Shown piece by piece: positions 973 through 55,165 of a stretch of DNA of 64,000 bases (position 1 is the stretch's first letter; each line of letters opens with the position of its first letter). The position numbers and the translations under genes are program-made. This DNA is from Haliotis rufescens (taxonomy: Eukaryota), in NCBI RefSeq assembly GCF_023055435.1, contig NW_025964112.1, positions 15,562,001 to 15,626,000 of the forward strand, written 5' to 3'. The notes under the pieces were generated by a model that was not told where the DNA came from, did not search any database, and saw nothing but the letters and a program-made list of their open reading frames with translations.

Positions 973-1227
973 TGGTTGGTTGGTTGGTTTGTTGTTTAAC
1001 ACCGCACTCAGCAATATTCCAGCTATATGACGGCGGTCTGTAAATAATCGAGTCTGGACCAGACAAGCCAGTGATTGACATCATGAGCATCGATCCACGC
1101 AATTGCGACAACCAAGTCAGCGAGCCTGACCACCCGATCCCGTTAGTCGCCTTTTACGACAAGCATAGTCACCTTTTACGGCAAGCATGGGTTGCTGAAG
1201 ACCTATTCTACCCCGGATCTTCACGAG
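973..1227 (-). mobile_element. Family A headless short retroposon (SINE-like), full length, subfamily with duplicated hairpin module
   Basis: Matches the multi-copy consensus in this window (CCCGTGAAGATCCGGG...GCTGGAATATTGCTGAGTGCGGCGTTAAACAAC plus (CAAA/CCAA)n tail); no tRNA A/B boxes. Confidence 0.9.
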
Positions 1228-6939: not shown

Positions 6940-7185
6940 CTTTGTTTTGTTTGTTGTTAAACGCCATAGTCAGCAGTAGTCCGTCTATAATCACGTCTAG
7001 ACCAAACAATCCAGTGACTGATATTATGAGCATCGATCGATGCAGTTGGGATACGATGACATGCATCAACCAAGTCAGCGAGCGTGACCACCCAATCCCG
7101 TTAGTCACCTCTTACGACAATCATAGTCGCCTGTTACTGAAAGCCTGGGTTGCTGAAGACCTATTCTAACACGGATCTTCACAGG
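6940..7185 (-). mobile_element. Family A copy (duplicated-module subfamily, internal deletion)
   Basis: Consensus match ending in GGATCTTCACAGG; carries the extra CATAGTCGCC...AAG module. Confidence 0.85.
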
Positions 7186-18928: not shown

Positions 18929-19229
18929 CCTGTGAAGATCCAGGTTAGAATAGGTCTTCAGCAACCTATTCATGCTGTAAAAGGGTGACTTTGCTTGTTG
19001 TAAGAGGTGACTAACGGGATTGGGTGGTCAGACTTGCTGATTTGGTTGATGCATATCACTGTATCCCAATTGCGTGGATCGATGCTCATGATATCAATCA
19101 CTTGACTGTCTGGTTCAGACGTGATTATTTACAGACCACCATCATACAGCTGGAATATTGCTAAGTGCAGCATTAAACAACAAACAAACAAACAAACAAA
19201 CAAACAAACAAACAAACAAACAAACAAAC
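18929..19229 (+). mobile_element. Family A copy, full length, long (CAAA)n tail
   Basis: Starts CCTGTGAAGATCCAGGTTAGAATAGGTCTTCAGC; duplicated module; most CpGs decayed. Confidence 0.9.
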
Positions 19230-35518: not shown

Positions 35519-35675
35519 GGTGGCGGGGTAGCCTGGTGGTTAAAGCGTTCGCTCGCCACGCCGAAGACCCGGGTTCGATCCCCTACTGGATACAATGTGT
35601 GAAACCCATTTCCGGTGTCCCCGCCGTGAGATAACTAGAATATTGCTAAAAGCGGCGTACAACTATGCTCACTCT
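35519..35675 (+). mobile_element. Family B SINE
   Basis: GGGGTAGCCTGGTGGTTAAAGCGTTCGCTCG...CCGGGTTCGATCCCC...GCTAAAAGCGGCGTA. Confidence 0.9.
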
Positions 35676-35759
35676 CTATCACACTAACCCTGATTCCTGG
35701 CCATCAATCCGTCTGTGTTCACTTTATCAGGATGCCTTCATATTAAATAGTTCCTTTAT

Positions 35760-36240
35760 AGGTGTAGTTGCGTCCCTTGGCTTGGGCACCCCACAAAACT
35801 ATGATCGTGGATACGAAGCCATCCTGGTTCGTCCCGATTGTTTCTAGGGTTGTGCTCGTGCGTTTCACCAAAGACTTCGTGGTAAACGTCTAAGACCTGC
35901 ATTGTTTGTTTGTTTGTTGTTTAACGCCGCTCTCAGCAATATTCCAGCTATATGACAGCCTTCTGTAAATAAACGAGTCTGGACCATACAATCCAGTGAC
36001 TGACATCATGAGCATCGATCTGCGCAAATGGGATACGATGGCATGCATGAACCAAGTCAGAGCCTGACCACCCGATCCCGTTAGTCGCCTCTTACAGCAA
36101 GCATGGGATGCTGAAGACCTATTCTACCCCGCATCTTCACGGGTCACTTAGACTTGCATTATATCGGGCTTTCCTCCCACATCAAGCTAATAACCGGATT
36201 ACTGTTGAAGCGGCGTTAAACCCAACTCGCTCACTCACTC
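35760..36240 (+). mobile_element. Decayed family C SINE interrupted by family A copy
   Basis: C-type sequence on both sides of the insertion; duplicated AGAC(C/T)TGCATT at the junctions. Confidence 0.75.
35903..36143 (-). mobile_element. Family A copy, full length, single-module subfamily
   Basis: Consensus match from (CAAA)n tail to terminal CCCGTGAAGAT. Confidence 0.9.
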
Positions 36241-46385: not shown

Positions 46386-46807
46386 TTTTTGTTTGTTTGT
46401 TTGTTGTTTAACGCCGCACTCAGCAATATTCCAGCTTATGACGGCGGTCTGTAAATAGTCGAGTCTGGACCAGACAATCCAGTGACTGATATCATCGATC
46501 CACGCAATTGGGATACGATGACATGCAGCAACCAAGTCAGCGAGCCTGACCACCCGATCCCGTTAGTTTCCTCTTACATTAAAACATTTGTTCGTCACTC
46601 CGAAGGCCCGGCTCTGATTCCCTACATGGGTAAAATGTGTAAAATGTGTGATGTCCTCCACTGTGATATTGCTGGAATGTTGCTAAAAGTGGCACAAAAC
46701 AATATTCATTCACACTCTTTATAGTTATGAGTTATAGAATATTGAAAATGTGTTTACGGCAAGCTTTGGTTGCTGAAGACCTATTCTCTACCCGGATCCT
46801 CACGGGT
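46386..46807 (-). mobile_element. Family A copy interrupted by a decayed family B copy (~46578-46720, + strand)
   Basis: A sequence stops at CCTCTTAC and resumes TTACGGCAAGC...CCTCACGGG; B motifs lie between. Confidence 0.8.
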
Positions 46808-54931: not shown

Positions 54932-55165
54932 CGTAAATACGGGTTAGAATAGGTCTTCAGCAACCCATGCTTGTCGTAAGAGGCGACTAACGGGATAGGG
55001 TGGTCAGGCTCGCTGATTTGGTTGATGCATGTCATCTTATCCCAATTGCGTAGATCGATGCGCATGATGTCATTCACTGGATTGTTTGGTCCAGACTCGA
55101 TTATTTACAGACCGCCGTCATACAGCTGGAGTATTGGCGAGTGCGGCGTTAAACAACAAACAAAC
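54932..55165 (+). mobile_element. Family A copy, single-module subfamily
   Basis: CGGGTTAGAATAGGTCTTCAGCAACCCATGCTTGTCGTAAGAGGCGACTAACGGGA...GGCGTTAAACAACAAAC. Confidence 0.92.

Follow-up and report, generated by a model that had tools for sequence, protein, structure and literature searches.

The head of a SINE copy in the Haliotis rufescens genome is a conserved RNA module that is predicted to fold into two stacked pseudoknots and a T-loop-like hairpin. By sequence comparison it is the "LP" (LINE-promoter) domain that the accessible part of PMC4758252 describes from mollusc SINEs and Nimb/RTE LINEs. We tentatively favor the explanation that the module is an exoribonuclease-resistant (xrRNA-like) fold, which would block 5'-to-3' exoribonucleases (Xrn1/Xrn2); this one property, stopping a 5'-3' exoribonuclease, would account for both the retroposon and the viral placements of the module.

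The focal repeat (~245 nt) lies on the minus strand of the window, as we call the whole stretch of 64,000 nt analyzed here, and extends from 36145 to 35904, that is, from G1 through an (AAAC)n tail. It belongs to family A, which is of LP type, and the stretch flagged in an earlier note is its head. The flanking TSD has its 5' copy at 36147–36160 (14 nt, with two mismatches to the 3' copy) and its 3' copy at 35890–35903, both read on the minus strand.

Fold of the module and covariation

The module is laid out as P1a(4)-U-P2a(7)-P1b(4)-insert-AGAAUA-P2b(7)-P3a(4)-loop-P3b(4)-U-GUCG-UAARAGG-CGAC-UAA-P5b, an arrangement that is fixed in 13 short-insert lineages. In the focal copy (all coordinates on the minus strand), the first two bases, G36145 and A36144, are followed by the P1 5' strand (CCCG, 36140–36143), the 1-nt loop 1 (U36139), the P2 5' strand (36132–36138), whose last pair is broken in this copy, and the P1 3' strand (36128–36131). 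Next comes the variable-insert site, which holds 2 nt here and more than 100 nt in some families, then the conserved AGAAUA loop of pseudoknot 1 (36120–36125) and the P2 3' strand (36113–36119). The P3 hairpin (AGCA/UGCU, 36100–36112) carries in its loop, UCCCA, the 5' strand of P5; the P4 hairpin (36084–36098) has a 7-nt T-loop-like loop, UAAGAGG, and a stem that in this copy has decayed to GCUG; and the conserved UAA with the P5 3' strand (36076–36083) closes pseudoknot 2. In other copies the site between P1b and AGAAUA holds an extended hairpin, CT-rich sequence of more than 100 nt, or (TAAG)n repeats (L286:1-617, L132, L082, L115).

An earlier note had advised checking the module by covariation, and the check supports four helices (P1, P2, P3, and P5) that would form two stacked pseudoknots. 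It used one real copy from each of the 13 short-insert lineages, of which 7 are cellular and 6 viral, leaving aside 9 of 22 lineages because their inserts were long, they had deletions, or close relatives were in the set. Pairing partners were permuted 20,000 times; the lineages are related, so the resulting counts are not probabilities. P2 keeps 87/91 pairs against 59.5±4.0 when permuted (0/20,000), P3, at fixed offsets, 47/52 against 30.6±2.9 (0/20,000), P1 45/52 against 36.2 (7/20,000), and P5 46 against 34.4 (15/20,000), the last being weak or absent in three viral copies (L193, L194, and L197). When the 13 lineages and the focal copy are aligned with MAFFT, 93% of 266 cells are paired, compared with 30–47% in slid controls, and double changes number 60 against 17.9 and are seen in 12/19 pairs. 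Folded by nested MFE, the focal copy does no better than shuffles (z −0.18); the support for the fold is comparative.

These helices bear out the TGAAGATC:GGTCTTCA pairing drawn in the earlier note, which is the 7-bp helix P2. That note had also offered two partners for the loop, of which the 5' CCCG, pairing with loop CGGG, stands as P1, whereas loop GGG with AACCC does not covary (35 pairs against 33.9 permuted); a further pairing, of the 5' end with the 3' strand, is likewise without covariation in the 13 lineages (39 against 38.0). Its CCC:GGG closing pair covaries as P5, but the note missed P3 (AGCA:TGCT), a helix whose presence makes the CCC:GGG pairing a second pseudoknot.

The P4 hairpin appears nearly invariant in the sequences compared; it hardly varies across lineages, with one double change, in LINE copy L529, so that covariation does not prove it. 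Because the 18-nt hairpin served as the search pattern, its invariance is partly built in; in a scan that left the loop free, a 7-nt UAWRAGG loop was found in 5/5 further matches having good P2 and P3. By its match to the pattern U-N-N-R-A plus two extruded bases, this loop is a putative T-loop, and its positions 3 and 4 vary, as a T-loop predicts.

Family A and its exact 5' start

Other copies in the window carry the module with a duplicated P3b-P4 unit at 1135–1227 (minus strand, 66 bits), 7093–7185 (minus, 53 bits), and 18929–19022 (plus, 57 bits), broken inside P4 by an insertion at 46754–46807 (minus), and truncated at its 5' side at 54932–54998 (plus, 55 bits), where the hairpin, at 54973, is the only exact one in the window. 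With up to two mismatches the hairpin has seven window matches against 0.02 expected. The motifs quoted in the earlier note are the majority forms of the family, from which the focal copy departs in having GAAGATG (one P2 mismatch) and GCTGTAAGAGGCGAC; the 46807 copy does retain its pairing through G-U, as had been claimed, and is split by the insertion as well. A family B repeat is what is inserted there; family B has a tRNA-like head, occupies 35535–35700 and 46580–46750 of the window, and has tail words in common with family A. Intact family-A heads number 45 in 864 kb of stretches chosen by position, which extrapolates to ~70,000 in the whole genome. The P3b-P4 unit (22 nt) is duplicated in 33/65 family-A copies, the first unit being mostly GCCG and the second GUCG.

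Family A has the features of LP-SINEs, namely, a head of ~70 bp that derives from a LINE and not from a small RNA, variable TSDs immediately on either side, and a tandem-repeat tail; TSDs, a tail of this kind, and a LINE-shared head are also what the accessible part of PMC4758252 gives for Hdi_LP, Hmi_LP, Lsa_2, and Sgl_LP. That source places LP-SINEs in gastropods and bivalves, finds their first ~70 bp common to Nimb-17_LMi, I-3_DR, and RTE-9_CPB, proposes the head as a promoter with the Pr77 ribozyme as analogy, and calls the LINE partner unidentified (PMC4758252). Scallop rows of its supplement show the module motif AGAAT...CGTAAGAGGCGACTAA, and its Haliotis LP consensus, listed at 255 bp, fits family A in a comparison by length alone. 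In the accessible text of PMC4758252 we saw no fold, covariation, viral copies, or HDV-headed LINE, all of which were found here, and our search for literature on LP-SINEs brought up no relevant work beyond this 2016 paper. The DNA domain was known already, as the LP head; the present analysis adds a LINE with an HDV-like head and a satellite that bears the module.

The earlier note saw no A or B boxes in the family. It was right insofar as a tRNA-like 5' head is absent and ARAGORN and Rfam find no tRNA; however, GWTCRANNC is matched at nt ~126 in 36/73 copies, and box-like words lie 85–135 nt inside family A rather than at its 5' end. The SINE body of the focal copy contains degenerate words like an A box and a B box (36012–36061, minus strand), and the box-like words may hint at a buried tRNA-derived part of family A.

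Five window copies had been said to share a start. A common start holds (a 12-mer at no more than one mismatch occurs five times against 0.23 expected), but it lies 2 nt earlier than claimed: family A starts precisely at GACCCG, and the first base of the focal copy is G36145, not 36143. The TSD adjoins GA-CCCG in 7/13 TSD-resolved top matches, with G or A ambiguous in 2 more, and in 5/15 of a sample taken by position. In the unbiased sample of family-A copies, G stands at −2 before CCCG in 32/45 and A at −1 in 36/45, with mild enrichment further upstream (A at −3 in 21/45, G at −4 in 18/45), and 59/148 BLAST pieces begin at nt 1–3. Four other host families, X, Y, Z, and V, with inserts before AGAAUA of 3 to over 60 nt, start one purine before the C run (A in 20/26 for X, G in 18/20 for Y, A in 6/10 for Z, G in 5/7 for V), the next base being random, and their starts carry no extra-G (cap-copy) signal. 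The start stays at P1 whether the insert before AGAAUA has 2 nt or anything up to over 60 nt, so the 5' end is tied to the fold and not to how far away the conserved 3' motif lies. Small-RNA reads of a relative, 4–43 in each of three runs, are mostly antisense and lack a 5'-end peak; they are too sparse for either side.

A purine start, found in all five SINE families tested and absent where the module is internal (the HDV-headed LINE) or viral, would suit an internal promoter that works as DNA, the role that the accessible part of PMC4758252 proposes for LP heads, and Pr77 of L1Tc is promoter and ribozyme at once (PMC3383444). However, the start keeps no fixed distance from a conserved downstream motif, and the compensatory base-pair changes and the RNA-virus copies demand a role of the RNA. 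We consider a promoter very unlikely to be the explanation; a pure DNA promoter is rejected as the sole role because it leaves the RNA-virus copies unexplained, and it could be a second role in retroposons.

Copies in virus contigs

Viral contigs contain 10 exact 18-mer matches, with the whole module at 7 and not at 3. Against a model built from 9 non-viral sequences, the viral copies score 48–72 bits, compared with at most 31 for chance 17-mer matches; a relaxed scan added L607, with modules at 44 and 27 bits, and among the matches listed those of loose viral scans are mostly chance. The RNA-virus-like contigs encode RdRP_4 (L195), RdRP_3 with a nodavirus-type capsid (L197), RdRP_3 (L199), RdRP_3 with an S-domain coat (L607), or a Peptidase_A21 capsid (L193/L198). 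The module is in tandem in two contigs, L607 and L191, the latter unclassified, its long ORF having no Pfam match. In five distinct contigs with RNA-virus proteins, the module lies on the coding strand 6–124 nt past the last stop codon, and from P1 to the contig end there are 89–183 nt in L193, L195, L197, and L199. A hairpin upstream of the viral module beats shuffles in 3/6 tested, at 6/300 or better. Each viral copy has its own compensated sequence, without the SINE body, which would tell against chimeric assembly, and since a DNA promoter has no meaning in an RNA virus, these copies point to a conserved role at the RNA level. L194 is a 212-kb AT-rich DNA-virus contig in which the module lies between genes, ~155 nt upstream of a long ORF.

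Such placements also bear on whether the module is a cap-independent translation enhancer, or an element that binds ribosomes or initiation factors, while something else sets the 5' end. It would then serve as a 3' CITE in viruses, help uncapped LINE mRNA that follows the ribozyme, and bring SINE RNA to ribosomes making ORF2p. The 3' UTR site right after the stop in tombus-, toti-, and tetra-like contigs suits this, as do the position upstream of the L194 ORF and that between the HDV-like ribozyme and ORF1 of the LINE described below. BTE elements have a conserved 17-mer, and the upstream pseudoknot domain of tobamoviruses consists of stacked pseudoknots; the module resembles both in its invariant ~18-nt hairpin and its stacked pseudoknots. 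Against this, no such family has an Rfam match to the module, and the exact P1 starts of five SINE families are left unaccounted for, so that we give an enhancer only a small chance of being the answer.

Other hosts

A metagenome scan gave at least 120 loci in several host families. Among the listed 17-mer matches to prokaryote genomes, AGAAT stands upstream in 10/120 and the full module is present in ~6. Prokaryote bins L243, L268, L273, L286, L315, L316, and L270 hold full or partial modules beside microsatellites or a LINE-like 5' UTR, and modules in such bins are probably animal DNA in the assemblies. Sequence following the module in L084 and L130 resembles the conserved RTE 5' UTR domain, which suggests that RTE elements use the same head as family A.

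The satellite is one ~67-kb array of ~640-bp AT-rich monomers at G000:C57:2176605-2243777 (L515, L516, L519-L525). Its 99 matches all fall within the G000:C57 array, each monomer has an intact module, and relative to family A the P2 and P5 changes are compensated.

A LINE with an HDV-like head before the module

A pattern search of the abalone's own genome returned 228 matches and led to L517 (G000:C2:22556001-22566000, minus strand; grouped with L518, L056, L526-L555), a full-length LINE with EN, RT, and RNase H, ORFs of 453 and 1229 aa, and a 14-nt TSD. The family-A tail is like the 3' end of this I/Nimb-type LINE (35920–35965 of the window, minus strand; 28/41 aligned columns identical for copy L012), which makes an I/Nimb-type LINE the likely partner of family A. 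The earlier note's view of the head as a LINE-shared, structured, pseudoknotted 5' module gains support from the covariation and from its presence in this genome's own LINE with EN, RT, and RNase H.

Ruminski reportedly described HDV-like ribozymes at the 5' ends of non-LTR elements in 2011. The first ~55–58 nt of L517 fit such a ribozyme, with the module directly 3' of it and upstream of ORF1; the head scores 28.5 bits against Rfam RF02682 (E 0.0023; below the gathering score of 44) and has G1, a P1 of 7 bp, P2, a P3 of 3 bp, L3 UCCUCGU, GG, and J4/2 with its C, and over 30 copies P1 averages 7.0/7, P2 6.9/7, and P3 3/3. On this fit it is a candidate HDV-like ribozyme. The 30 LINE loci are part of 40 scored among 2,348 candidates, retrieved with a query that did not include the HDV part. 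In all 30 the first base is the HDV G1, next to random flanking sequence, and their module helices stay largely paired (P1 4.0/4, P2 5.9/7, P3 3.5/4, P4 4.0/4). Their module may be relaxed, because in 29/30 copies the loop or the UAA departs from the commonest form of the core (CAA or CGA for UAA in 20, UAUGAGG in 9); CAA and UAUGAGG are found in viral L607 too, and older HDV-headed copies have the core intact.

The earlier note's idea was that the module is a self-cleaving ribozyme of a new class, cutting just 5' of P1 so that host transcripts release the retroposon. The module would then occupy the slot of the HDV-like and twister ribozymes of other LINEs (PMC5786205, PMC8501958), its start at the first P1 base with a purine recalls HDV geometry, and linear RNA viruses do carry ribozymes in UTRs (PMC13725137); the strongly conserved core, the intact module in every monomer of the 640-bp satellite, and the core variant in most HDV-headed LINE copies agree with it. 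However, a cut at the 5' border in the 3' UTR of an RNA virus would remove the genome end, viral copies have no conserved base at the would-be cleavage site, and those viral ribozymes whose position is stated in the accessible part of PMC13725137 lie in 5' UTRs or in tandem pairs. The module has no known catalytic core, and the LINE core variants recur in L607. Further, a module cutting at its 5' border would throw away the HDV-like head, which is inherited in 30/30 loci and also stands before intact cores in older copies. Self-cleavage is thus now the weaker reading, and we think it unlikely.

A possible exoribonuclease-resistant fold as the favored explanation

In the xrRNA-like reading that we prefer, P1b and AGAAUA would wrap the 5' strand as a ring, and read-through or decapped transcripts would be trimmed until the enzyme stalled at P1. 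The RNA copied by the I/Nimb-type LINE protein would thus begin at P1. In viruses a stall at the module would yield a short 3' subgenomic RNA or protect the 3' end, and the HDV-headed LINE would gain from it a backup for its uncapped end. Consistent with this are the covarying helices P1, P2, P3, and P5 in their fixed arrangement; the retroposon start, which lies precisely at P1, with an end that follows the fold; the RNA-virus contigs that carry the module just past the last stop, in tandem in two contigs; and the module kept, its helices largely paired, behind the HDV-like ribozyme in 30/30 LINE loci.

Several observations weigh against the xrRNA-like reading. The ring was counted on a 2D drawing. 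Known xrRNA halt sites have several unpaired bases upstream, more than the retroposon starts offer, which give just 1–2 nt ahead of the P1 core, and the purine start in five SINE families suits transcription initiation or a cleavage-site preference. The ~30 near-invariant bases, including the whole hairpin far from the ring, exceed what a mechanical block would be expected to need and would suit a catalytic core or a protein site. The LINE argument is weakened by the 29/30 deviating copies, and 0/30 LINE loci start at the module, although trimming predicts that some should.

A 2021 review considered cellular xrRNAs still to be found (PMC8374639, in its accessible part). We hold more loosely the further claim that the module is a new xrRNA class, the first from cellular genomes, which LINEs of different clades have exchanged with one another, with their SINEs, and with unrelated RNA viruses, and that it offers a third route to a 5' end, in which a host nuclease trims without promoter or ribozyme. 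The module bears on how full-length 5' ends arise in non-LTR elements that lack an evident promoter or ribozyme, and with 70 nt, a defined helix set, and tens of thousands of sites besides RNA-virus 3' UTRs, it makes both questions, that of 5' ends and that of cellular xrRNAs, testable. Cleavage would make it a new ribozyme class, and enhancement of translation would connect viral CITEs with LINE biology.

Comparison with known systems

Scanned against Rfam, neither the window nor 20 homologous loci nor a single SINE copy gave a relevant family. That the fold does not fit HDV, hammerhead, twister, or pistol, as the earlier note had said, is borne out, with 0/13 lineages fitting and no Rfam match in the 20 loci; hammerhead, twister, and pistol were tested by their conserved core words. 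For HDV, 0/13 lineages fit a nested-double-pseudoknot descriptor (P1-P2-P3-L3-P1.1-P4-J4/2, catalytic C) that a positive control does fit, and a circularly permuted twister, also tried on the module, fails. In the literature within reach (which excluded subscription papers, figures, and bioRxiv supplements), the exact motif was not found and no xrRNA was reported in retrotransposons.

Known xrRNAs have a ring of 15–16 nt closed by a pseudoknot and are often in tandem in viral 3' UTRs, as in flaviviruses (PMC8374639), and the predicted ring of the module, counted on the 2D model, has 14–15 nt in 6 viral copies and 14–19 in the 13 lineages. Like viral xrRNAs (classes 1a/1b/2, the Tombusviridae/Luteoviridae class, and coremin; PMC8374639, PMC10520033), the module has a pseudoknot on its 5' side, a place in the 3' UTR after the stop codon, tandem copies, and a spread over unrelated virus families. 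It differs from them in its far higher sequence conservation and in occurring in cellular retrotransposons. The three-way junction core of xrRNA classes 1 and 2 is lacking, the covarying helices being two stacked H-type pseudoknots with the T-loop-like hairpin, and no Rfam match links them; the topology matches no class in the accessible part of PMC8374639, which counts against the xrRNA-like reading.

The HDV-like ribozymes of R2, RTE, LOA, and L1Tc/ingi (PMC5786205, PMC3383444) and the twister variants of Perere-3 (PMC8501958) hold the same element position as the module, and in both, as in the module, the 5' end falls precisely on the first base of a helix. Unlike them, the module is without the P3/L3/P1.1 core, and in one LINE family a separate HDV-like ribozyme precedes it. 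ENE triple-helix elements are stability elements common to viruses and transposons that guard the 3' poly(A) end. The module, too, is both viral and transposon-borne, but in retroposons it sits at the 5' end, whereas ENEs sit at the 3' poly(A) end.
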